A stretch of DNA of 64,000 bases from Truepera sp. (lineage in GTDB: Bacteria; Deinococcota; Deinococci; Deinococcales; Trueperaceae). The notes beneath the pieces are model-generated. The model did no database searches. It was not told the DNA's origin and was given only the letters and a program-made list of their open reading frames with translations. The DNA lies in NCBI GenBank assembly GCA_965218435.1, contig CBDCKW010000009.1, forward strand, positions 3,232,001 to 3,296,000, given 5' to 3'. Made by a program: the position numbers and the translations under genes. This document shows, piece after piece, positions 8,630 to 63,473 of the stretch. The number at the start of each line of letters is the position of its first letter. Within the stretch, counting starts at the first letter, position 1.

Positions 8630-10318
8630 ATGCTAGGCACAGCGGAGATTAAAACGAACGTCGGGAGCGCGCTGCGGCGTATCGGCAAACAAAACGACCA
8701 GGGTGAGACGGTCGGGATTGCGTACTTGGAGCGCGGCACCCTGCAGATGATCCCCGTAGTGCTGCGTGTGCTCGGGTTTATTTTGGTTTTGAGCCTTTAC
8801 TTTTTGCAGCGCCCTCTAGCGGTGTTCGGGGTGGTACCGGGGCTCGAGACCCTAGCCAATACCCGCCTCATTTCGCCGTGGCAGTACGGGCTCGCCATTT
8901 TGATCTACGCCGTTTATTTCGTCGCCACGCTCGTGCGGAGCGGCTTTTTCAAAGGTCAGCCGGGGGTCGAGCTGCACTTTACCAAGCATCAGCGGATTGT
9001 GCGCACGCTTAAAGCAGGCCAGAGCGCACTCGTGGTAGACCCACGGGTACGGCCTTACGCCGCCGTATCCACCAAACCTTTCGTCCTCGACATGCCGCAG
9101 ATCGAGGGCACCACCGGCGACAACATCAGCTTGTCGTATAAAGGGGCGCTCATCGCCCAGGTTGAAGATACCTACCGGCTTGTCGAACGAGGCGGGTTTG
9201 AGGTCTTTTGTACACAGTTAGAAGAACTTTTTGAGAGTGTCATCAAAGACGAGATGCTGAGCATTTCCGCAAGGGATTTTAACCGCTTTCTGGTTGAGCG
9301 GGCGGCGTTTCCGGAGGGTGACGCAGTAGACGAAGAGAGTCTGACCGACCGACTCGCCGATTTGGAGAAAGAAGACCTCAGCCCAGAATTACTCTCAAAA
9401 ATTGCCAGCATCGCTGAACTCGACGTGTCACGGTTTGTACTCGACGAAAGCGGCTCTCCCCGGCGGCGAGTGCTCCTCGCCAAGCTGCAAGACCTCGCCA
9501 GCAGTTACGGCATCACGCTTTTAGACCATCTGCCGCAGGGCAACCTCACCAGCGACGACTATTTGCGCACCTTAGCGGTTGGGCTTGTCTCATCTATCAC
9601 GCGGGTGCGGCAGGCCACCGAGACGCTTAAAGATATCACCGAAGAGGAGATTTCCGAAGAGATTGCCGCGAAGGTCGCGGATGTGAGTTTGGGCGTGTTA
9701 GAGGTCGAGCGCATCATCCGTGAAATTGACGCCATCAAAGGCTCGCTGCAAAACCAGGCGACCGAAACCCAGATTATTCGGGCGCGGCAAGCGGCGATTG
9801 ACAATATCGTCAGCAGCTACCTGATCCCGGCACTGTCGCAAGTTTCGACGCTTAAAGAGCAGGTACGGGCGCGGAGTGTGCAGAGTGCGGGGCTGGAAAC
9901 GTATATTCAAAAACAAGGTGAGCTGTTAGAACGCCTCGAGGCGCAACTCGGCAGTTTACCCCGTGTGAGCCGCGTGGTGACTGACCAAACTGACGTAAGT
10001 CACATGATGCTGCAGGGTGACCTGTTGGGGGCGCTCTTGCAAGAAAGCGACGTGACGGCGGTGCTGCAAGAGTACAAACGGCGCGGGTTTGCCAGATTGG
10101 GGGGCTCAGGTCAGGAGGCGCTGGAGGCGTACAAACTCGATGTAGACGCGCTGATGAGCCAGTTAAGTAGAGCGTTGGAAGACGTGCCGACCGACTCCGG
10201 CACGAGAGTCGAGTACACGCCCGAATCGGTCAAACGCAAGGTCGAGGAGATCACGGCGAAGGCGAGCGTACCGGGCGCTGTTGACCTAGAACGTTACCAA
10301 GAGGAGGCCAGCTTATGA
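8630..10318 (+). CDS. Divergent SPFH/band-7-like membrane protein A
   Basis: AAGGAGG SD. Two TM segments, then GTTGDNISLSY and LQDLASSYGITLLD resembling the SPFH core, then a long helical C-terminus. Confidence 0.6.
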   Translation: MLGTAEIKTNVGSALRRIGKQNDQGETVGIAYLERGTLQMIPVVLRVLGFILVLSLYFLQRPLAVFGVVPGLETLANTRLISPWQYGLAILIYAVYFVATLVRSGFFKGQPGVELHFTKHQRIVRTLKAGQSALVVDPRVRPYAAVSTKPFVLDMPQIEGTTGDNISLSYKGALIAQVEDTYRLVERGGFEVFCTQLEELFESVIKDEMLSISARDFNRFLVERAAFPEGDAVDEESLTDRLADLEKEDLSPELLSKIASIAELDVSRFVLDESGSPRRRVLLAKLQDLASSYGITLLDHLPQGNLTSDDYLRTLAVGLVSSITRVRQATETLKDITEEEISEEIAAKVADVSLGVLEVERIIREIDAIKGSLQNQATETQIIRARQAAIDNIVSSYLIPALSQVSTLKEQVRARSVQSAGLETYIQKQGELLERLEAQLGSLPRVSRVVTDQTDVSHMMLQGDLLGALLQESDVTAVLQEYKRRGFARLGGSGQEALEAYKLDVDALMSQLSRALEDVPTDSGTRVEYTPESVKRKVEEITAKASVPGAVDLERYQEEASL

Positions 10319-11634
10319 GTTTTAGAGACGTCGGTCAGCGTTTAGGCGATCAAGCGAAGGGCGGGCTCGAGGAAATCCTAGACAGCGGCTCGCGTGAAGT
10401 TGAAGCGGCCGTCGGTCGCCGCCTCGACCAGATGCTCGGCGCAGTGAAGCGCAACGTCCAAGAGGGCGACCTCAGCCGCTTTCGGTCGGTGGACGAAGAG
10501 CGTATTTTAAGCTTTGTGCCCGACAAACGCCGCCCCTCAGGGTTGGGACTTTTTACCCTGGGACTCCTGCTGCTGGTTTTACTTCCGGGCTGGCTTAAAG
10601 TTTTGGCCGTACCCGCCCTACTCTTAGGTGTCCTCGTCTTTGCCTGGCGCTATTTGAGCAACGCCCGCGTAGATGTGCCCGACGGTTATACCGGCGTGCT
10701 CTGCCGTTACGGACGACCGCTTGGGGGCCGTCAGGCACATACCGGACGCAACTGGCTCACCCGTTTCGACACCTTTATCCCCTTTTTAGTCTCGCAGCGC
10801 GACCAAGTTGTAGAACTCGAGGACGCCAACTTTACCGCCGACTACGCCAGCATCTCGCTCTCGCAACAGCTCGCCTTTCGCGTCACCGAACCGGCGGTAT
10901 TTATCGAGCGGAGCAGCCCCGGCAACATCATGAAAATCTTGAGCCTTTACGCAGGCTATTTGAACCTGCGCATCATCACCTCGATTGAAGACGCGCGGGT
11001 CAAGTTCAGCGGGCGCGACCGGATTGACAACATTATCGGAGCATTAAACGACAACCTGCGGGAGGGTTACGGCATCGAAATTGTCCGCGGCAGTATGCCC
11101 TCGGCCAATAACGACATCTTGCTCGATTTGGAGGCGATTCGGACGCTGCTTAAAGAGATCGAGGCGATGACCGAGACGCAGCAGGTGCGGGTTGAAGCGG
11201 CCGTCAAACAGGTCGAATCGCAGCTGCGCACCCGCCGTAAAGAGACGCGGAGCCGCGCGTTTGATCTGCAGCAAGCCAAAGTTCGGTTAGATACGAGCGT
11301 CGCCGAGCAGGTCGGGGCTGCCAAACAGACGAGTTTGGTCCGGGCGCGGCAAGAACTCGAGGCCGCCGCCTCAGAGGTGCGCCGCGAACTTGCAACTTTG
11401 GCTGCCAGAGAACAGAAAAACCAGGGTTTACAAGATTCGGTCGAGGGGTTGGAGCTCGAGTTTCGCCTGCGCCTCGCTGAACTTAAAGAGCGCTACGCCC
11501 GTCAGCTGTTACCCGAGCAGATCGAAGTGCTCGCGGTTAAAGGGTTGGGGCCGGGGCTGAGTTTGGGGCGGGCGCTGAGAGAAGCGGGTGGGTTGTTTAA
11601 GGCGTTGCCGGAGCTGGGGGATAAGGACGGTTAA
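10315..11634 (+). CDS. SPFH/band-7 membrane protein B
   Basis: TM hairpin, then VDVPDGYTGVLCRYGRP, FTADYASISLSQQLAFRVTEP and GYGIEIV, then a coiled coil. ATGA overlap with the upstream gene. Confidence 0.75.
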   Translation: MSFRDVGQRLGDQAKGGLEEILDSGSREVEAAVGRRLDQMLGAVKRNVQEGDLSRFRSVDEERILSFVPDKRRPSGLGLFTLGLLLLVLLPGWLKVLAVPALLLGVLVFAWRYLSNARVDVPDGYTGVLCRYGRPLGGRQAHTGRNWLTRFDTFIPFLVSQRDQVVELEDANFTADYASISLSQQLAFRVTEPAVFIERSSPGNIMKILSLYAGYLNLRIITSIEDARVKFSGRDRIDNIIGALNDNLREGYGIEIVRGSMPSANNDILLDLEAIRTLLKEIEAMTETQQVRVEAAVKQVESQLRTRRKETRSRAFDLQQAKVRLDTSVAEQVGAAKQTSLVRARQELEAAASEVRRELATLAAREQKNQGLQDSVEGLELEFRLRLAELKERYARQLLPEQIEVLAVKGLGPGLSLGRALREAGGLFKALPELGDKDG

Positions 11635-20061: not shown

Positions 20062-20294
20062 CGACTGTTGGCGTAATGAGTTAGCTAACCTGCGTTCGGG
20101 GTGGCTACCAGCAACGAAGAAGTATCTCCCAAACCAGGAAGCGTAAAGAGCCTGCAGGAGAGATACAGACAGGTCAAAAAAACATTAGCGTAGGCGTCGC
20201 TACAGCAGTCAGGGACGTCAAACGGGTAACTTGTCAGGTGCGAGAGAGAGTTGGTCATGCGTTTTCAGCGTGTAGATTCGCAGAGTACCCCAGG

Positions 20295-21350
20295 GTGATC
20301 TGGTATGTGGTTACTCGTGAGCATTTCAGCACCGTCATTGAATACCTTGCAACTTATGGAGGTGCGTTTGCTGCGCGGCCCCGCGTCTTGTTTTACGATC
20401 AGTTAGCGCGAGCACGGCGGTTACCTAGTGGAACCTACATTTTTTCCGACATCGAGCGCTTGACGCCCGCGATGGCCGAGTGCGCGGCCCACGTATGGCA
20501 GGCTCTTAGCGCAGCCGACACGCAGGTTAGGCTGCTCAACCACCCGACACGTTCGCTGCAGCGATTTGAACTCTTGCGCACGCTTTATAAAGATGGCGTC
20601 AATAGATTTGACGTCTACCAGGTGACCGAGCAGCGCGAGCCCGAACGCTTTCCGGTCTTTATCCGCCGCGAGGAGCACGGTGGTTACGTTTCTCCACTGC
20701 TTACCACGCCCGCCGCACTTGCAGCAGCTATTGATAAGTTGAACCATGATGGACATTCACGAGAGGATAAACTTATCGTCGAGTTTTGCGATACGTCTGA
20801 TGCAAAGGGTATATTCCGTAAATATAGTGCGTTCGTCGTTGGAACACAGATCATTCCCGCTCATATCTTCTTTAGCCCTCACTGGTTGGCCAAGCAGATG
20901 TCAGCCGACAAACACAGTCCGGCTATGCTAGAAGAAGAACGCGTTTATATCTATGAAAATTCGCACGCCGACGCGCTTCTAGCCTATGCACAAAGAGCCC
21001 AGATCGAATTCGGCCGGATCGACTACAGCGTTCTTGACGGCTCGCTGCAAATATGGGAGATTAACACCAACCCACAGTTACCAGTACCCCTTGACCGTTA
21101 TGCGGTGGTGCCCCAGCAGGTGCCCCAATTACACGTTTCAATGCAAAAACTTACTGCTGCTTTGGTCGAAGTGGAACGGCAGGGGCAAGCCAAGGGCAAG
21201 CAGGTCGCTATCTCACCTGAAAAAGACGCTCTGCTGATGTGGGCTAAACGTGGGGTGGGCGTCTTACCGCACCGTTATCAACCAGCAGCCAAACGAGTTG
21301 TAAGGCGTTGGTACCGTGCGGGCGTCGCCTCGTGGCAACGGCGCTTCTAA
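20295..21350 (+). CDS. Hypothetical ATP-grasp-like protein (start uncertain; ORF is open from 20238)
   Basis: FPVFIR, FRKYSAFVVG, FGRIDY and WEINTNP resemble ATP-grasp C-terminal motifs. Confidence 0.6.
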   Translation: MIWYVVTREHFSTVIEYLATYGGAFAARPRVLFYDQLARARRLPSGTYIFSDIERLTPAMAECAAHVWQALSAADTQVRLLNHPTRSLQRFELLRTLYKDGVNRFDVYQVTEQREPERFPVFIRREEHGGYVSPLLTTPAALAAAIDKLNHDGHSREDKLIVEFCDTSDAKGIFRKYSAFVVGTQIIPAHIFFSPHWLAKQMSADKHSPAMLEEERVYIYENSHADALLAYAQRAQIEFGRIDYSVLDGSLQIWEINTNPQLPVPLDRYAVVPQQVPQLHVSMQKLTAALVEVERQGQAKGKQVAISPEKDALLMWAKRGVGVLPHRYQPAAKRVVRRWYRAGVASWQRRF

Positions 21351-22922: not shown

Positions 22923-23966
22923 AATCATCTGCGAAATAGCGCCGAAGGAGTCAAAGGACTAAACTAGCAGGATGAAAGCGAGCCGCTTAAAGAGAAAGCC
23001 CAAGCATCTGTATAACTTCACAGGTTTAAGCGTCGAGCAGTTCAAGTTGCTTAGTAAAGCGGTCGAAGTACGCCTTGCCGAACCAAAAGGCACCCAGGGC
23101 AAATTACGTCAACGTGCAGTAGGCGGGGGACGCAAGGCAGAACTAGGGGTAGAGGATCAGGTTTTAGGGGTGCTGCTGTATTACCGTTTGTACCTGACCC
23201 AGCTGCTACTAGGCTACTTATTCAACTTGGATGATAGTAACGTCAGCCGTTTGATCAGCAAACTTCGACCTGTACTACTTGAGGTTCTCCCCTTACCAGC
23301 GCACGAGACAGTTCTTTTTGGTCAAGCTAAAAGAAAGCGTATCGCAAGCCTAGAAGAACTGCTTGAGCAGCATCCTGAGTTCAAGGAAGTCTTGGTTGAT
23401 GCTACCGAGCAAGAAATCCAGAAACCCAAAGACAAGCAAGAACGCAGAGACAAGTATTCAGGTAAGAAAAAGCGACATACGCTCAAGACCCAAATCACTG
23501 CCACCAACACAAAGCTTATCCTTCATGTGACACGTTCTTTACCAGGCAAATTCAGCGACGTCAACGTCCTTAGAGGTACCGGGGTGTTACGAGCTTTACC
23601 TACGGCTACCGAGGTCCGAGTGGACAAAGGATATGACGGTATTGATAAGGATTTTCCCCATAGAACCTTCCATCAGCCCAGCAAAGCTAGAAGAAACAAA
23701 CCCCTGGACTTCATCCAGAAATGCCTCAACAAAGTTCAAAACAGCCTGCGTTTTCCTGTCGAGCACACACTGGCTCACTTGAAACGCTTTAAGCTCTTAG
23801 CGGGTATCTACCGAGGCCCAAAAGCTGTTTATGATGACACTTTCTTAGCTATCGCGGGGCTTCATAACTTCAGAAAGTTAGATGCTCTGGCTTGGTAAGC
23901 CGACTTAAACCCTTTCTCTAAGCCTAGCTACTTTATTCTGATCGTGTACTTATTTCGCAGATGATT
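22923..23966 (+). mobile_element. IS5-family insertion sequence (ISL2-like group)
   Basis: Perfect 16-bp terminal IRs AATCATCTGCGAAATA (22923-22938) and TATTTCGCAGATGATT (23951-23966), flanked by TA on both sides. Lower GC than the flanks. Confidence 0.92.
22972..23898 (+). CDS. IS5-family DDE transposase
   Basis: N-terminal HTH (GGGRK...YYR), VDATE, YSGKKKRH, DKGY and R-x-x-VEH-x4-LKRF. Confidence 0.93.
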   Translation: MKASRLKRKPKHLYNFTGLSVEQFKLLSKAVEVRLAEPKGTQGKLRQRAVGGGRKAELGVEDQVLGVLLYYRLYLTQLLLGYLFNLDDSNVSRLISKLRPVLLEVLPLPAHETVLFGQAKRKRIASLEELLEQHPEFKEVLVDATEQEIQKPKDKQERRDKYSGKKKRHTLKTQITATNTKLILHVTRSLPGKFSDVNVLRGTGVLRALPTATEVRVDKGYDGIDKDFPHRTFHQPSKARRNKPLDFIQKCLNKVQNSLRFPVEHTLAHLKRFKLLAGIYRGPKAVYDDTFLAIAGLHNFRKLDALAW

Positions 23967-29034: not shown

Positions 29035-30552
29035 ATGGCAGCGATTTACCAACGTGCGAGACCGATTACGTTTGCTCAAGTCATCGGTCAAGAACACGTC
29101 AAAGCGCCCTTGCAAGCGGCACTTTCTCGGGGCCGTATCGGTCATGCGTATCTGTTTTCCGGGCCTCGAGGCGTCGGTAAAACGACAACGGCAAGACTCT
29201 TGGCAATGGCGGTCAACTGCGAACGAGACGAGAAGCCGTGCGGAGAGTGCGAGTCGTGCCTGCTCGTGCGACAGGGAAATCACCCGGACGTGACTGAACT
29301 CGACGCGGCGAGTAACAACTCGGTTGAAGACATCCGCGATTTACGCGAGAAGGTCTATTTGTCCTCGGTACGGGGCGGGCGGCGGGTATGGGTCTTAGAC
29401 GAAGCACACATGCTCTCAAAATCGGCGTCGAACGCGCTCTTGAAAACGCTCGAGGAACCCCCCGAAGGTCTCGTTTTTGTGTTAGCCACAACCGAACCGG
29501 AAAAGTTGCCACCGACGATTTTGTCGCGGACGCAGCACTTCCGCTTTCGGCGGCTTTCTGAAGGGGAGATTGAGAGTAAGTTGGGGCATCTAACGCAGGA
29601 AGCCAAAGTTGAGGCTGAACCCGGCGCATTGGCCCTCGTCGCCCGCGCCGCTGACGGTGCGATGCGGGACGCCGAATCGTTGCTCGAGCGTCTTTTGGCA
29701 AGTGGCGCGACGATTACGCTCAAAGACACCGAACGCGCCCTCGGTCTGCCGCCGCAGACCCGTATGCAGACGCTTGCTCGTTCTCTGGCTGAACGCGACC
29801 TAAACACCATGCTCGGCGAAGCGAGCGCCCTGTACCGCGACGGGTTTGCGCCGCGTAGTCTGGCCGAACGCCTGACGCTCGAGCTTAGAAATGCGCTCTA
29901 TACGCAAGTTGGCCTCGATGAAGGCTTTTCGCTGACGCTGAGCGAAGACGACCTGCTCCGCACAATTCACGCCCTTGATGATGAGATGGAGCGGTTTGTC
30001 CGTTACGACGACCTGTTTTCGCTCGAGGTCGCCCTGATCAAAGCCGTCAACGCGTTGTCTCAAAACGTGCCCCGCCCGGTTATGGATTCAGCAGCCTCTG
30101 AAGACGTGCAGCCTGCACCGTCTCAGCCTAGACCCCAACCTGCACCTCGCCCCACCCCCCCAGCCTCAACGAACGGCCTTCCCGATTTCGACCCGACAGG
30201 CCGCCCCGCCCCGGTTCGCTCACCCCCTGCGGACGCACAACCCACAAGCACGCCTACACCGGCAGAGCCCATCCCACCTTCTACGCCGGCCACCAAACCC
30301 GACCGCTCCAAAGCCTCGTGGCACACCGTGCAGAGCCGCGCCGGAACGCAGCTTAAGGCGTTTATGCTGCCTGCCAAAGCCGACATCGAAGGGTCAGACA
30401 TCTTTTTGCGTTTTGCCGACACCCACAAGTTTCACTTTACGCAGCTTAAAACTCGGCAAGACGAACTCGCCACGCTGGTTAAAGACGTTCTGGGTGACGG
30501 GTATACGCTGCACCTCGAGGGACCGGGGGAACGCCTTACAAAAAAGTCGTAA
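29035..30552 (+). CDS. dnaX: DNA polymerase III gamma/tau, zero-frame product (505 aa)
   Basis: YQRARP, GPRGVGKT, Zn module, DAASN, DEAHML, NALLKTLEEPP and SRTQ. Confidence 0.97.
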   Translation: MAAIYQRARPITFAQVIGQEHVKAPLQAALSRGRIGHAYLFSGPRGVGKTTTARLLAMAVNCERDEKPCGECESCLLVRQGNHPDVTELDAASNNSVEDIRDLREKVYLSSVRGGRRVWVLDEAHMLSKSASNALLKTLEEPPEGLVFVLATTEPEKLPPTILSRTQHFRFRRLSEGEIESKLGHLTQEAKVEAEPGALALVARAADGAMRDAESLLERLLASGATITLKDTERALGLPPQTRMQTLARSLAERDLNTMLGEASALYRDGFAPRSLAERLTLELRNALYTQVGLDEGFSLTLSEDDLLRTIHALDDEMERFVRYDDLFSLEVALIKAVNALSQNVPRPVMDSAASEDVQPAPSQPRPQPAPRPTPPASTNGLPDFDPTGRPAPVRSPPADAQPTSTPTPAEPIPPSTPATKPDRSKASWHTVQSRAGTQLKAFMLPAKADIEGSDIFLRFADTHKFHFTQLKTRQDELATLVKDVLGDGYTLHLEGPGERLTKKS

Positions 30553-30575
30553 CGGAGCGCCCAGGGGCCGCTCCG
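30525..30575 (+). promoter_or_regulatory. -1 programmed ribosomal frameshift cassette
   Basis: In-frame A AAA AAG at 30540-30546, SD-like GGGGGA at 30525-30530, and GC-rich hairpin CGGAGC-GCC-CAGG-GGC-C-GCTCCG at 30553-30575. Confidence 0.8.
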
Positions 30576-31112
30576 ACCACGCCCCCAACCAACGCACCGA
30601 CTCAACCGGCAAAACAACCCAAACCTGAGAAGCCGGAACCCGTAGCGGACGTAGCACCACCGGTCGCACAATCTACCCTGGAGCCCAGCCCCGCGCACAC
30701 GCCGCTGATGCCTCCTCCTGGTGTCCAGTCAAACGGCACCGTAAACGCACCGCCCCACACACCCGACGAAACCGCGCCGCTGCCACCCGAACCGTTTGCC
30801 CACGAACTGCCGCCAGACTTTTGGGGCGACGACCCTGTCCTCCGCGAAGTGCCTCAACATGCGCCGGACACCTATACTGACGCCGTACCCGCACACATCG
30901 TTTCAGAACAGGCGCAATCAGCACAGGTAAAACCGCTGACAGGTCCCTTACAACGTGACCCCCGCTTCGTCTTACTAACCGAGCTGTTTCCGGGCCAGGT
31001 TACCGATTGGCAGAGCGCCGAAGCTGCCGCTGCACCCGCCCCAGATGACGCCGACGGAGGGCCTGAAACGGTAGACTTAGAAGAAGGTTTGGACGCTGAC
31101 GAGCCCGATTAG
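30546..31112 (+). CDS. dnaX: -1 frame extension of dnaX (tau C-terminal part)
   Basis: Stop-free from 30546 and in frame with ORF 30708-31112. Pro-rich linker followed by DPRFVLLTELFPGQV, resembling tau C-termini. Confidence 0.8.
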   Translation, partial: VVTERPGAAPTTPPTNAPTQPAKQPKPEKPEPVADVAPPVAQSTLEPSPAHTPLMPPPGVQSNGTVNAPPHTPDETAPLPPEPFAHELPPDFWGDDPVLREVPQHAPDTYTDAVPAHIVSEQAQSAQVKPLTGPLQRDPRFVLLTELFPGQVTDWQSAEAAAAPAPDDADGGPETVDLEEGLDADEPD

Positions 31113-31224: not shown

Positions 31225-31536
31225 ATGAACATGCAAAAACTGATGAAAGAAGCGCAAAAAGCGCAAAAAAAGATGCAAGAAGCGCAGGAGCGGTTAGCGA
31301 ACTTGTCGGTCACCGGCAGTGCAGGCGGCGGCTTGGTTACGGCGACCGCTTCGGGTGACGGTGCAATTACCGCGGTCAAGATCGACCCCGGCACCGTTGA
31401 CCCTGAAGACGTCGAGCTCTTAGAAGACCTCGTGATGGCGGCGGTCAACGACGCGCAGCGCAAAGCCAAAGAGCTGCAAGAGACCGAGATGGGCGCGGCG
31501 ATGGGCGGTATGGGCGGCCTCGGGGGGATGTTCTAA
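31225..31536 (+). CDS. ybaB: YbaB/EbfC nucleoid-associated protein
   Basis: GSAGGGLV and DVELLEDLVMAAVNDA, in the conserved dnaX-ybaB-recR order. Confidence 0.95.
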   Translation: MNMQKLMKEAQKAQKKMQEAQERLANLSVTGSAGGGLVTATASGDGAITAVKIDPGTVDPEDVELLEDLVMAAVNDAQRKAKELQETEMGAAMGGMGGLGGMF

Positions 31537-31539
31537 AGC

Positions 31540-32130
31540 TTGAAATATCCACCCGCTCTAACCCAGCTTATCCGCGAGCTGGGGCGACTGCCCGGTATCG
31601 GCCCGAAAAGTGCCCAGCGGCTCGCGTTTCACCTTTTTAATCGGCCCGACGACGAAGTGCGTGGTCTCGCTGAGGCGCTCTTAAACGCGAAGGGCAGTTT
31701 ACGGCAGTGTGAAGTCTGCTTTAATATCACCGACACAGAGCGGTGCGCCGTCTGTACCGACGCGCAGCGTGAACAGAGCCTCATCTGCGTGGTTGAAGAA
31801 CCCGCAGATTTGTTAGCCATTGAACGCTCCGGTGAGTATGACGGGCTCTATCACGTGCTGCACGGCGCACTTTCGCCGATGAACGGCGTGGGGCCGGATC
31901 AGCTGACGATTCAGCCCCTTTTGACGCGCCTTAAAGACGTTGACGAGGTCATCTTAGCAACCGCGACGACCGTCGAGGGTGAAGCAACGGCGATGTACTT
32001 AGCGCGGATGCTTGGCGAGATAAAGGTTCCGACCTCACGTATAGCTTACGGATTGCCCGTCGGGGGCGATCTCGAGTACGCCGACGAAGTAACCTTGGGC
32101 CGCGCCATCAGCAACCGCCGCAGGTTATAG
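31540..32130 (+). CDS. recR: Recombination mediator RecR
   Basis: LPGIGPKSAQRLAF, C4 Zn finger, YHVLHG and EYADEVTL. Confidence 0.97.
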   Translation: MKYPPALTQLIRELGRLPGIGPKSAQRLAFHLFNRPDDEVRGLAEALLNAKGSLRQCEVCFNITDTERCAVCTDAQREQSLICVVEEPADLLAIERSGEYDGLYHVLHGALSPMNGVGPDQLTIQPLLTRLKDVDEVILATATTVEGEATAMYLARMLGEIKVPTSRIAYGLPVGGDLEYADEVTLGRAISNRRRL

Positions 32131-32192: not shown

Positions 32193-32220
32193 TTGACATC
32201 AGCTGGGCACTCTATATAAT
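32193..32220 (+). promoter_or_regulatory. Near-consensus sigma-A promoter of topA
   Basis: TTGACA-N16-TATAAT. Confidence 0.75.
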
Positions 32221-32273: not shown

Positions 32274-35216
32274 GTGAGTCAGGCACAAAAAAGAAGCGTT
32301 AGAGGGGGTGGACTGCGCCGACTTGTCATCGTCGAGTCGCCGACGAAGGCCAAGACCATCCGGCGTTTTTTGGGGCCGTCTTACCGTGTTGAGGCTTCGA
32401 TGGGCCACGTGCGCGACCTGCCCGCCTCCGCCGCCGAAATTCCCAGCAGCTATAAAGACCAGGCGTGGGCGCGACTCGGTATCAACGACCGCTTTGAGCC
32501 CATCTATATCGTCCCGGCAAAGAAGAAAAAAGTCGTCAGCGAGCTTAGAGCTGCGCTTAGAGACGCCGACGAACTCTATATAGCCACCGACGAAGACCGC
32601 GAGGGTGAGTCGATTGGCTGGCACTTGGTCGAGGTCTTAAACCCCAAGGTGCCGGTACACCGGATGGTCTTTCACGAAATCACTGAAGACGCCATCCTCC
32701 GGGCGCTGGGCGAAACTAGAGCGATTGACCAGCATTTAGTAGACGCGCAGGAGACGCGGCGGGTGCTAGACCGTTTGGTGGGTTACACACTCTCGCCCTT
32801 ATTGTGGAAAAAAGTTGCGCCGAAACTCTCGGCGGGGCGGGTGCAGAGCGTGGCGGTACGGCTCATGGTCTTACGCGAACGTGAACGCATCGCGTTTGTC
32901 CCCGCGAGCTATTGGGATTTGAAGGCAAGGCTCGAGAAAAATCAGTACGCCTTCGACGCTGTGATGACGCACTTGGGCGGCGTCCGGTTGGCCACGGGCC
33001 GCGACTTTGACGACGACACCGGCAAGCTCAAAGCGGGTCTGACGGCGGGTAAAGACATTTTGCTGCTCGGTCAAGCTGACGCCAAAGGTTTGGCAGATCG
33101 CCTTAAAAGCCAAGCTTGGCACGTCCATAAGGTCGAAGAACGCACCGGCAAACGCTCTCCAGCGGCTCCCTTTACCACCTCGACCTTGCAACAAGAGGCG
33201 AGCCGCAAACTTGGGTTATCCGCTAAGGAGACGATGCGCCTCGCGCAAGGGTTGTACGAAAACGGCTACATCACCTATATGCGTACCGATTCAACCAACC
33301 TCGCGTCCGAGGCGGTCAACGGGGCGCGGCGGGCGGTCGAGACGCGTTACGGCAAAGAGTATCTGAGCCCGAGCCCGCGTTCGTATAACAAAAAGGCCAA
33401 AAACGCGCAAGAGGCGCACGAGGCGATTCGGCCGGCGGGCGGCGACATGAAAACACAAGCGGAGCACGGTCTGGCGGGGCTCGAGGGCCGTCTGTACGAC
33501 CTCATCTGGAAACGCACCGTCGCCACGCAGATGGCCGACGCCGTGCTCAGATTTGTCACTGCGCGGATTCACGTCGGTGAGGGCAAAGCGCAAGCCGAGT
33601 TTCGGGCTTCGGGCCGCACCACCGTCTTCGCTGGCTTTTTCCGCGCCTACGTCGAAGGGTCGGACGATCCTAACGCGGCGTTAGACGACCAAGAGCAACC
33701 GCTTCCTGATCTGCAAGAACAAGACCCGCTCAACTGTAAAAATCTGGACGCGCTCGGTCACGAGACAAAACCGCCCGCCCGTTTTACCGAAGCGTCTTTG
33801 GTCAAACTTTTAGAACAAGAGGGCATAGGGCGACCGAGCACCTACGCGAGCATCATTGATACGGTCATCAACCGGGGCTACGCCCGCAAAAACGGTTCAC
33901 AGCTCGTCCCGACGTTTACCGCGTTTGCGACAAATAACTTGTTAGAGAAACAGTTTGCACAGTTAGTAGACACCGGGTTTACCGCGCAGATGGAAGACGT
34001 GTTAGACGACATCGCGGCGGGTGACCTCGAGGCTGAACCTTACCTCGAGCGCTTTTACCGGGGGCAAGAAGGGTTAGAAGCTCGGACGCAAACGAGCCTC
34101 GCCGAGGTAGACGCTAAAGCCATCTCGACCCTGCACTTCCCCAAATGGGGCGATTATCTGGTGCGCGTCGGGCGTTTTGGGCCGTACGCCGAGGGTGTGA
34201 TAGACGGCGAAACCGTCACCACGTCGCTGCCAGCAGACCTGCCACCTGATGAAATAACGAAGGAATACCTCGAGAAAGCCCTTACAGAAGGCAACGCCGC
34301 CGACAACGTGGTCGGCGCGTTTCCCGAAACCGGCGAGGTGATGATCTTAAAATCCGGTCCTTACGGGCCGTATGTGCAGCTCGGGGACGACGAGCAAGCG
34401 GGCAAACCCAAACGCACGTCGCTCCCGCGCGGGCTCGAGCCGAGCGCCGTCACGCAGGAACTGGCTGCCGGTCTGCTATCCTTGCCGCGCACATTGGGCC
34501 AGCACCCGGATACCGGGAAAGACGTGCAAGCTGCCATCGGCCGCTTCGGGCCGTATGTCAAACACGGCAGCACCTTTGCGTCTTTGCCCAAAGAGGACGA
34601 TGTGCTCAGCGTCGCCTTACCGAGAGCGTTAGACCTCATCACCAAAAAAGAGTTTAAGAATAAGCCGCTCCGCGTATTGGGTGAGCACCCCGAAACCGGT
34701 GAAGACGTCGAGCTGCGTGACGGGCGTTATGGGCCGTATGTTAAACATCAAAAGACGAACGCGTCTTTGACTACGCAGGAGCCGGACACGGTGACGCTAG
34801 ATGAGGCGTTGGGGCTGCTGGCCGAACGCGAACGGACGCACCCAACGAAGAAGGTAACCGGGACGAAAGCTGCCAAAAAATCTACAGGCAAAAAGAAAGC
34901 AGCTCCTAAAAAAGCCGGGGCGAAGACCGCTAAAAAATCCGCAGCTAAAAAATCCGCCAAGAAACCCGCCGGACCCAAAGCCACCCCACGTCAGCTCGAG
35001 CCCTTTTTAGGCGACTTAGACCCCGAAGTGGCCGAGGTGGTGGTGAAGCTCGAGGGGATGCGCGGCGAGCGTGCCCAGGACATCGCCACCGTTGCCGACA
35101 GCGTCGGCATGTCTGAAGAAGGCGTTAAAGCAGCGCACAAACGCGGGATGTTCAAATTGCGAATGGCGTTTGGGCGGGCACGTAAAGACGCCGAAAACGC
35201 GCCCGTTGCCGCGTAG
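32274..35216 (+). CDS. topA: DNA topoisomerase I with C-terminal repeats, Lys-rich stretch and terminal HTH-like domain
   Basis: IVESPTK, DEDREGE, SAGRVQ, ITYMRTDS, QEAHEAIRP and GRPSTY, plus four GR/PFGPY-type repeats. Confidence 0.97.
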   Translation: MSQAQKRSVRGGGLRRLVIVESPTKAKTIRRFLGPSYRVEASMGHVRDLPASAAEIPSSYKDQAWARLGINDRFEPIYIVPAKKKKVVSELRAALRDADELYIATDEDREGESIGWHLVEVLNPKVPVHRMVFHEITEDAILRALGETRAIDQHLVDAQETRRVLDRLVGYTLSPLLWKKVAPKLSAGRVQSVAVRLMVLRERERIAFVPASYWDLKARLEKNQYAFDAVMTHLGGVRLATGRDFDDDTGKLKAGLTAGKDILLLGQADAKGLADRLKSQAWHVHKVEERTGKRSPAAPFTTSTLQQEASRKLGLSAKETMRLAQGLYENGYITYMRTDSTNLASEAVNGARRAVETRYGKEYLSPSPRSYNKKAKNAQEAHEAIRPAGGDMKTQAEHGLAGLEGRLYDLIWKRTVATQMADAVLRFVTARIHVGEGKAQAEFRASGRTTVFAGFFRAYVEGSDDPNAALDDQEQPLPDLQEQDPLNCKNLDALGHETKPPARFTEASLVKLLEQEGIGRPSTYASIIDTVINRGYARKNGSQLVPTFTAFATNNLLEKQFAQLVDTGFTAQMEDVLDDIAAGDLEAEPYLERFYRGQEGLEARTQTSLAEVDAKAISTLHFPKWGDYLVRVGRFGPYAEGVIDGETVTTSLPADLPPDEITKEYLEKALTEGNAADNVVGAFPETGEVMILKSGPYGPYVQLGDDEQAGKPKRTSLPRGLEPSAVTQELAAGLLSLPRTLGQHPDTGKDVQAAIGRFGPYVKHGSTFASLPKEDDVLSVALPRALDLITKKEFKNKPLRVLGEHPETGEDVELRDGRYGPYVKHQKTNASLTTQEPDTVTLDEALGLLAERERTHPTKKVTGTKAAKKSTGKKKAAPKKAGAKTAKKSAAKKSAKKPAGPKATPRQLEPFLGDLDPEVAEVVVKLEGMRGERAQDIATVADSVGMSEEGVKAAHKRGMFKLRMAFGRARKDAENAPVAA

Positions 35217-62047: not shown

Positions 62048-62632
62048 TCAGTGACGGACGCGGTAGCGGATGTGAGTGGCTTCCGGGGTGTCGATCACCC
62101 GCACAATCTCTAGTTCGGTAGGCGACGGCAACACGTCGAACAGCCGTCGGCCACTCCCGAGCAGCACCGGAATCTGATGGATTTGCAATTCGTCGAGTAC
62201 CCCGGCCTCGAGCGCCCGTTGCGCCGTGGTCGCGCCATGCACCAGCACGTTCCGATCCCCGGCGGCGGCCTTCGCCTGTGCCATCGCGCTAGTGATCCCA
62301 TCGGCGGCGTAGGTTACCAACGGATAGTTCGCGACGGACGGTTCGGGCGGCCGGTGACTGGGCACAAAGACCGGGACACCGTGGTGATCGCCGCCCCAGT
62401 GATCGACCTGCTCCATGGTCCGCCGGCCCACGACGACCGCGCCGGTCGCCTTGCCTTCGTCCAGAAACTGTCCGGCCACTCCGGACGACTGAGTGGATTC
62501 CCCGTCCGGGCCGAATCCGTACCAGTCGTGCAGTCGCATGAAGCCGTCGCCCCCTGGGTTGCCCGGCTCGTCATTCGGTCCCGCGATGTACCCGTCAAGC
62601 GACATCGACATGTAGAGGACAGTCTTTCCCAC
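62048..62632 (-). CDS. DHFR-like (RibD C-terminal) protein
   Basis: MSMSLDGYIAGP, GRRT and LDELQIHQIPVLLGSG. Confidence 0.9.
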   Translation of the reverse strand: MGKTVLYMSMSLDGYIAGPNDEPGNPGGDGFMRLHDWYGFGPDGESTQSSGVAGQFLDEGKATGAVVVGRRTMEQVDHWGGDHHGVPVFVPSHRPPEPSVANYPLVTYAADGITSAMAQAKAAAGDRNVLVHGATTAQRALEAGVLDELQIHQIPVLLGSGRRLFDVLPSPTELEIVRVIDTPEATHIRYRVRH

Positions 62633-62635
62633 GCT

Positions 62636-63130
62636 TCATCTCCTCGCTTCTTGCGCCAAAAATGCCTCGAGCCTGTCCCAAGTTTCGTTCAGTCCCGCTT
62701 CCATGCCCATATCCAGAACGCGCTTAAGCTCCTCAGCCGACCCGAAGACCGTACGGCTGATAACTTTTGTCTCGTCTTCCAGAGCTTCAAAACTAACGGT
62801 GATTTGCAGCTGCGGCGTGCCTTCAAGCACATTGCCGTCACTGTCTACAAAGTTATCTGTATAGGTAATTTTTTCCGGCGGTTGGATGTCTCGGTACACG
62901 GCTTTGCCCCAGCTCTCCTCCCCGCCGGGGCCGCGCATACAGTAGAGCCAAGTGCCACCAGGGCGAAAGTCCAGCTCGCATACAGGCAGCGTCCAACCTT
63001 TCGGCCCCCACCACTGTTTGAGATGTTCAGGTTTGCTGAACGCTTCAAAAACCAGTTCTCGAGGCGCATTAAAAACGCGTTCTACAACGAAAGTGCGGTC
63101 AGTGAGCGTAGCTGCATTATTCTGATTCAT
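62636..63130 (-). CDS. SRPBCC/AHSA1-domain protein
   Basis: ERVFNAPRELVF, WWGP and LDFRPGG. Confidence 0.92.
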   Translation of the reverse strand: MNQNNAATLTDRTFVVERVFNAPRELVFEAFSKPEHLKQWWGPKGWTLPVCELDFRPGGTWLYCMRGPGGEESWGKAVYRDIQPPEKITYTDNFVDSDGNVLEGTPQLQITVSFEALEDETKVISRTVFGSAEELKRVLDMGMEAGLNETWDRLEAFLAQEARR

Positions 63131-63473
63131 CTTTCTTCTCCTTTTGCGGCTTTTGTAAAGCCTCTAGATACTCTTCCAGGCGGTCGAAACTTTCTTCCCA
63201 AAACTGCCTAAACGGAACCACCCAGTCGTAAATCGTTTTTAGGCGCTCGCCGTTGAGCCTATATAAACGCCGCTGACCCGACGTGCGCACTGTAACTAGC
63301 CCCACCTCCTTTAAGACGCGCAGATGTTTGGAAACTTGCGGCTGTCTCGCACCCGTCGCTTCGACCAGTTCGCTCACTGAGCGTTCCCCACCTGCCAGCA
63401 CGTTTAAGATGTCGCGCCGCTGCGCCTCGCCGACAGCGTTAAAAACATCCGAGTTGGTCGCCGAACGTGCCAT
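63117..63473 (-). CDS. ArsR-family regulator (SRPBCC-associated type)
   Basis: QPQVSKHLRVL and FWEESFDRLEEYL. Confidence 0.92.
   Translation of the reverse strand: MARSATNSDVFNAVGEAQRRDILNVLAGGERSVSELVEATGARQPQVSKHLRVLKEVGLVTVRTSGQRRLYRLNGERLKTIYDWVVPFRQFWEESFDRLEEYLEALQKPQKEKKDESE

Follow-up and report, generated by a model that had tools for sequence, protein, structure and literature searches.

The dnaX gene of this Truepera genome, and of the family Trueperaceae as a whole, very probably relies on a ribosomal -1 frameshift that makes tau, the longer product, the recoded one; this is a reading of sequence and of its conservation. We put at about 0.88 the probability that a fraction of ribosomes would shift by -1 and make a 692-aa tau, while the others would reach the stop one codon further on, yielding a 505-aa gamma. 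The same pair of products, gamma by standard decoding and a tau of about 692 aa by the shift, had been proposed in an initial annotation, and it is supported on comparative grounds. If this is right, a core replication protein of a whole bacterial family is made only via recoding, and databases store it as a truncated gamma and an unnamed fragment. The elements of the locus within the window (the whole stretch of 64,000 nucleotides that was analysed) are as follows.

29035..30552, + strand: dnaX zero-frame ORF, predicted gamma (505 aa, 55.2 kDa), with AAA+ clamp-loader core, Pro-rich linker and DnaX_C domain
30286..30531, + strand: DnaX_C (PF20964) domain, common to both predicted products; resembles the C-terminal piece of tau from Thermus aquaticus (first half)
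30525..30530, + strand: SD-like GGGGGA, predicted stimulator, 9 nt upstream of the heptamer
30540..30546, + strand: slippery heptamer A AAA AAG in X_XXY_YYZ phase
30546..31112, + strand: -1 frame, predicted tau extension, 188 codons plus TAG; Pro/Ala/Thr/acidic linker with two conserved motifs
30550..30552, + strand: zero-frame stop TAA, one codon past the heptamer
30553..30575, + strand: 3' stem-loop CGGAGCG...CGCTCCG, predicted stimulator, 6 nt past the heptamer, -15.4 kcal/mol
30804..30824, + strand: conserved ELPPDFW motif in the -1 frame; a like motif is in 27 of the 36 shifted tails listed
30957..31001, + strand: DPRFVLLTELFPGQV, C-terminal motif of tau, with the C-terminal tail of DnaE as its predicted docking partner
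31225..31536, + strand: ybaB/ebfC (context), PF02575, E 1.7e-34
31540..32130, + strand: recR (context), PF21176, PF02132, PF13662 and PF21175

The dnaX locus and its two frames

The gene order on the + strand is dnaX-ybaB-recR, and no second full dnaX match is among the matches listed for the source genome. Pfam recognizes PF13177 (E 7.5e-47), PF22608 and PF20964 in the zero frame, the last at aa 418-499 with 26.3 bits against a cut-off of 26.2; this domain also gives a weak match (E 0.041) to residues 17-72 of 4IQJ_M. The codons at the end of the zero frame are CTT ACA AAA AAG TCG TAA, which places A AAA AAG in phase and one codon ahead of the stop, as first annotated. The claim that the -1 frame is open to 31112 holds as well, and the frame is in fact stop-free already from 30498 to the TAG at 31110-12. 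The predicted -1-shifted product has 692 aa and 74.8 kDa, with LTKK joined to VVTER at the junction. In the protein collection the gene appears as two gene calls, one of 505 aa and a separate one of 134 aa starting at the ATG at 30708.

Several other features of the window were recorded. The topoisomerase I gene (32274-35216) is preceded by a perfect TTGACA-16-TATAAT promoter-like site at 32193-32220. No Pfam match at E 1e-5 was obtained for four ORFs of 344-562 aa (within 8630-11634, 20238-21350 and 62177-63211), and a DDE transposase is found at 22972-23898.

The recoding cassette in Trueperaceae

Relatives were collected from 61 genomes and from a contig search giving 38 loci, with L058-L068 omitted as weak partial matches; the nearest titled records are Trueperaceae. 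In the dnaX set nine duplicates were dropped, two loci were swapped for longer versions and five contig-edge loci were set aside, and no full dnaX match was found in genomes G003 and G006. The 71 complete zero frames were sorted on two criteria other than the heptamer, namely family code and the presence or absence of the LFPG motif of the tau C-terminus in the zero frame. This gave 40 split and seven continuous genes in the Trueperaceae clade and 24 continuous genes in four other families; contig fragments from G020 and G026, outside the 40, also show the split cassette. These relatives are kin and not independent samples. Aligning them, which the initial annotation had suggested as a check, showed heptamer, stop and hairpin to be conserved across Trueperaceae. 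A loose search for the cassette as a pattern was discarded as too unspecific to count.

An in-phase heptamer is present in all 40 split genes: 22 have A_AAA_AAG, 17 A_AAA_AAA and one (L053) G_GGA_AAA. It is followed by the stop after one codon in 38 genes, after two in L055 and after nine in L011. In 39 of the 40 genes the Lys pair is preceded by a codon with A in its third position; these codons specify eight amino acids, and the A-ending background is 9-13% (39% for Lys). The string AAAAAAG itself is common, with 23 occurrences in the window, and in-phase A AAA AAG is found 46 times in 1690 crude long ORFs of the genome, where only that of dnaX is one codon before a stop. The L053 variant (heptamer within 2562-2648) has a run of only four A in the same phase, with stop and hairpin retained.

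The SD-like GGGGGA ending 9 nt upstream was also correctly annotated. Its pairing with the source genome's own anti-SD amounts to -8.6 kcal/mol, and no sampled upstream window is equally strong. Most split genes have the element: pairing to the same anti-SD is strongest 7-10 nt upstream, and for 34 of 40 genes it ranks among the best tenth of windows, with weak pairing in the other six. The published SD spacing for -1 shifts is 9-14 nt (PMC5009743). The element partly overlaps a Gly-Pro-Gly protein motif and persists without that motif in L010, L011 and L025.

The GC-rich hairpin was likewise found at the annotated place, 6 nt downstream, and is supported by conservation while not being significant alone: compared with shuffles in four windows its z values are -0.65, -1.78, -1.33 and +0.24, which is unremarkable by itself. 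A stem starts at +7 in 32 of 40 split genes and in 91 of 760 upstream background windows. Within 25 of 40 split genes the two arms pair 7/7, compared with 8% of 600 arm swaps, and with one row per arm type (16 types) none of 2000 permutations reaches the observed arm pairing, in a covariation test where partners are picked by best match and kin are not independent. Compensatory changes are seen at position +10, which is A-U in 11 genes, G-C in 26 and C-G in two. The distance from arm to arm is a multiple of 3 in 36 of the 40. A search of Rfam gave nothing close to the gathering score. That the hairpin is an intrinsic terminator was considered and rejected, as a scan found no terminator-like site on the + strand.

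By analogy with E. coli dnaX, two tRNA-Lys would, in the course of translocation, exchange their pairing with AAA AAG for pairing with AAA AAA, while the hairpin would slow the ribosome and the SD pairing would pull it back. The source genome has tRNA-Lys genes with CUU and UUU, and the arm pattern of tRNA-Lys(CUU) was found in 49 of the 61 genomes. High shift efficiency in E. coli rests on a single tRNA-Lys (PMC5009743), and efficiency on AAG may be lower here because tRNA-Lys(CUU) is present besides UUU. The A_AAA_AAA variants, for which in vitro work within E. coli dnaX gives shifting near 50% (PMC6787027), should be independent of the AAG reader. Heptamer type, judged by eye and from incomplete assemblies, does not visibly track the tRNA-Lys(CUU) pattern. 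In crude ORFs of the source genome AAA exceeds AAG (15977 vs 10524) although the window has 57% G+C, and Lys-Lys pairs favour AAA AAG.

The same layout can be set against other ways in which the two frames might be explained. Transcriptional slippage, where an A inserted into the run by RNA polymerase yields mRNAs that encode tau in normal decoding, would fit the homologous site of sister families, which is an A8-9 run, and also the A7 of fifteen split genes and the A8-9 of three (L024, L040, L055), so some relatives may use both routes. As an account of the Truepera gene we consider it improbable, because the window has A6, relatives' runs are mostly short (at most 7 in 37 of 40) and published cases use 8-9 A (PMC1088944). 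Runs of six A or T number 3022 in the genome, and runs of nine only four. Moreover, L053 keeps a valid G_GGA_AAA with A4 only, and the conserved codon phase, SD spacing and position of the 3' hairpin would be needless for polymerase slippage. The natural variant in L053 is a ready test between ribosomal and polymerase slippage. A gamma accompanied by an independently initiated tail protein is very unlikely; it draws on the separate gene calls of both parts and on the -1 codon lying over the stop, which is CTG, GTG or TTG in 21 of 40 genes, but this codon is GTA, CTA or TTA in the other 19, the window included, and the first Met is missing in 21 of the 40 tails and scattered in the remainder. 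Two proteins would also provide no reason for the heptamer, and in 31 continuous genes the tail is part of one fused ORF. Re-initiation at the zero-frame stop was rejected on the same codons and on the scattered or absent Met.

An assembly indel or a broken gene is largely excluded. The context is a homopolymer, L040, L042 and L054 have further frame breaks downstream of the cassette that resemble assembly errors, and a split dnaX of D. radiodurans (DR_2410/2411) merges in another stock (PMC11219805). Nevertheless, the same break, phase and hairpin recur in 40 distinct genes from many assemblies and in the two contig fragments, and it is this conserved layout in relatives, rather than the Logan contigs, that excludes an assembly error. 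The Logan contigs of runs X1 and X2 span the heptamer with no indel listed, which is a weak check: they are contigs and not raw reads, from one sample that is possibly the source, in none of the listed pieces is the heptamer flanked by 31 nt both before and after it, and run X3 has no cover of the site. A search for RNA data sets that contain the locus listed none. The absence of another full dnaX match among those listed for the genome also speaks against a broken copy. Judged by these alignments, the split dnaX is a family trait and not an assembly error, and the ribosomal -1 shift is the reading that we retain.

The tau extension and the polymerase

Comparisons among four close relatives indicate that the -1 frame is evolving as code: in all five pairs compared its third positions differ most, and of 27 internal gaps 23 have a length divisible by 3. 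An LFPG-type motif lies inside the -1 frame of 36 of the 40 split genes. It is missing from that frame in L014 (contig end), L055 (N gap), and L040 and L054 (second downstream break). In alignments the LFPG motif of split genes falls on the C-terminal end of the continuous tau proteins of sister families. As for the other motif of the extension, ELPPDFW recurs in several continuous Trueperaceae genes.

The structure 4IQJ contains tau bound to Taq Pol III alpha (PMC4703070), and a Thermus-like member of our set matches its chain M on both sides of the A9 site (E 5.8e-48). The window tail itself has no match in Pfam and none in the PDB under E 0.5, including one profile search; a tail profile that contained Thermus-like rows gave a weak match to 4IQJ (E 0.066). 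A 90-residue HMM of continuous C-termini is of no use owing to low-complexity bias; the window tail scores below zero against it. A tighter, outgroup-only HMM has its best match inside the -1 ORF in 25 of 40 genes by script count, which includes L055 as a no-match default and many low scores, the window scoring 4.3 bits.

We also modelled the 52-residue motif region with the tail of the source genome's single DnaE. This complex reached 0.63, compared with 0.21 for the best of three controls; the mark for such models is reached by 116 of 157 solved complexes and by two of 215 mismatched pairs. Contact agreement between runs was at least 82% and partner pLDDT at least 59, and the modelled interface is formed by the motif's LF together with the strand that follows. 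As a similar complex has already been solved, the score may express likeness rather than binding, and the pass may reflect memory of 4IQJ. A tau-like, polymerase-binding C-terminus in the shifted frame, as proposed in the initial annotation, is supported by motif alignment, coding constraint and the complex model together. The C-terminal motif for binding to the DnaE tail is predicted to be present in tau alone, and tethering of the polymerase would then depend on the shift. Genome G028 has several DnaE C-terminal matches, two of them identically scored on different contigs, from either a duplication or a mixed bin.

History of the site and known systems

In three of the other families (f3-f5) a run of A8-9 lies in a continuous ORF just after DnaX_C in 17 of 18 genes. 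All 17 have a -1 stop within 2-10 codons and 15 have a +1 stop within 15 codons, an arrangement that matches the one published for T. thermophilus. Family f2, likely Deinococcus given the 786 aa in PMC11219805, has no run in any of its six genes, which encode 761-802 aa. Within the Trueperaceae clade seven of 47 genes are continuous, five of them without any slip site. A maximum-likelihood tree of the AAA+ core supports the clade with 100/98 and places continuous genes at six positions inside it. In a quick tree of 54 rows the split/continuous label requires seven changes, and a tree constrained to group the split genes is rejected (p-AU 3e-114). With the root placed outside the family, the simplest reading is one gain and about six reversions in Trueperaceae, this direction being inferred; single reverted genomes could be assembly errors.

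Three continuous genes deserve mention by themselves. The dnaX of G017 (L018) has a Thermus-type A9 near aa 477 with near stops in both other frames, and is nested among split genes. In G035 (L012) an in-phase GCT AAA AAA AAG near aa 531 is followed by a -1 stop two codons on, which is the E. coli polarity. The 548-aa gene of G031 (L070) is apparently without DnaX_C and slip site, with the LFPG motif kept.

The Thermus A9 run is very likely homologous to the heptamer of Trueperaceae, in view of the position just after DnaX_C in Thermus-like loci, from which, rather than from T. thermophilus' own gene, the homology was judged. In the initial annotation Thermus had been brought in by analogy; the slippage site stands, but the relation very likely goes beyond analogy. 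We consider it somewhat better than an even chance that the dnaX site acted as an evolutionary switch in Deinococcales, in which an ancestral A8-9 site of polymerase slippage making gamma was replaced at the root of Trueperaceae by a ribosomal -1 cassette making tau, with about six later reversions to A9, to the E. coli polarity or to no site. If this is true, mechanism and polarity are interchangeable at one locus within one order. With the natural allelic series at this site (A9 continuous, A6G/A7/G_GGA_AAA split, reverted, lost), one could test for what reason gamma is retained in bacteria and whether one slippage mechanism can stand in for the other.

The inverted logic of the gene is not new and is already in print. 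In PMC3711429, recoding is described as needed for tau in 17 two-ORF dnaX genes of 12 genera (GeneTack cluster COF_239165634); 12 of the genes have poly-A7-10, and transcriptional slippage is suggested. PMC4066793 names the same cluster and repeats the two-ORF dnaX, and PMC5009743 sets out the reversed logic and gives Chlorobium phaeobacteroides as an unpublished candidate whose signals resemble those of E. coli. The searched text of PMC3711429 and its supplement PDF (Fig. S3 aside) does not mention Truepera. Among openly accessible papers, a search combining Truepera or Trueperaceae with dnaX or frameshift gave only PMC11219805, which treats another subject, and PMC1978522, and no account of this family; subscription papers, GeneTack and bioRxiv supplements may name it. 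If our reading is right, Trueperaceae provide a family-wide, covariation-backed case of ribosomal and not transcriptional recoding in the reversed class, for which the reviews consulted cite only the unpublished candidate.

With the -1 frameshift of E. coli dnaX (PMC5389563, PMC5009743) the Trueperaceae gene shares A AAA AAG, an SD-like element 9-10 nt upstream, a downstream hairpin and, as predicted, gamma and tau from one gene. The initial comparison, three shared elements with the opposite outcome, is thus in accordance with the data: in E. coli the shift leads to gamma, whereas here it opens 188 codons. Further differences are the second tRNA-Lys(CUU) of the source genome in place of a single tRNA-Lys, and a Thermus-type C-terminal domain of tau with no homology to that of E. 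coli (PMC4703070). The dnaX of Thermus thermophilus (PMC1088944), from the same order, has very likely the same site after DnaX_C, and its gamma also keeps that domain and loses the last motif. However, the Thermus tau is encoded without interruption and its gamma arises by polymerase slippage at A9 with stops in both other frames, while the window has A6, short of 8-9 or more A, and its tau is not one continuous ORF. The two-ORF dnaX genes resemble ours in having adjacent ORFs joined by a -1 transition, the gamma stop directly after the site and a tau that needs recoding; here too the second ORF encodes the C-terminus of tau (the direct match to 4IQJ being weak), and the site is conserved across genera, in 40 of 47 complete Trueperaceae-clade genes. 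Unlike in that class, the Trueperaceae sites are mostly A6G/A7 with an SD-like element and a hairpin, which points to a ribosomal shift. The Trueperaceae dnaX would work like the E. coli cassette but sits outside it in polarity and tRNA set, and belongs to the two-ORF dnaX kind; what it adds to the published cases is evolutionary, namely the switching of mechanism and polarity that may have taken place at one site.
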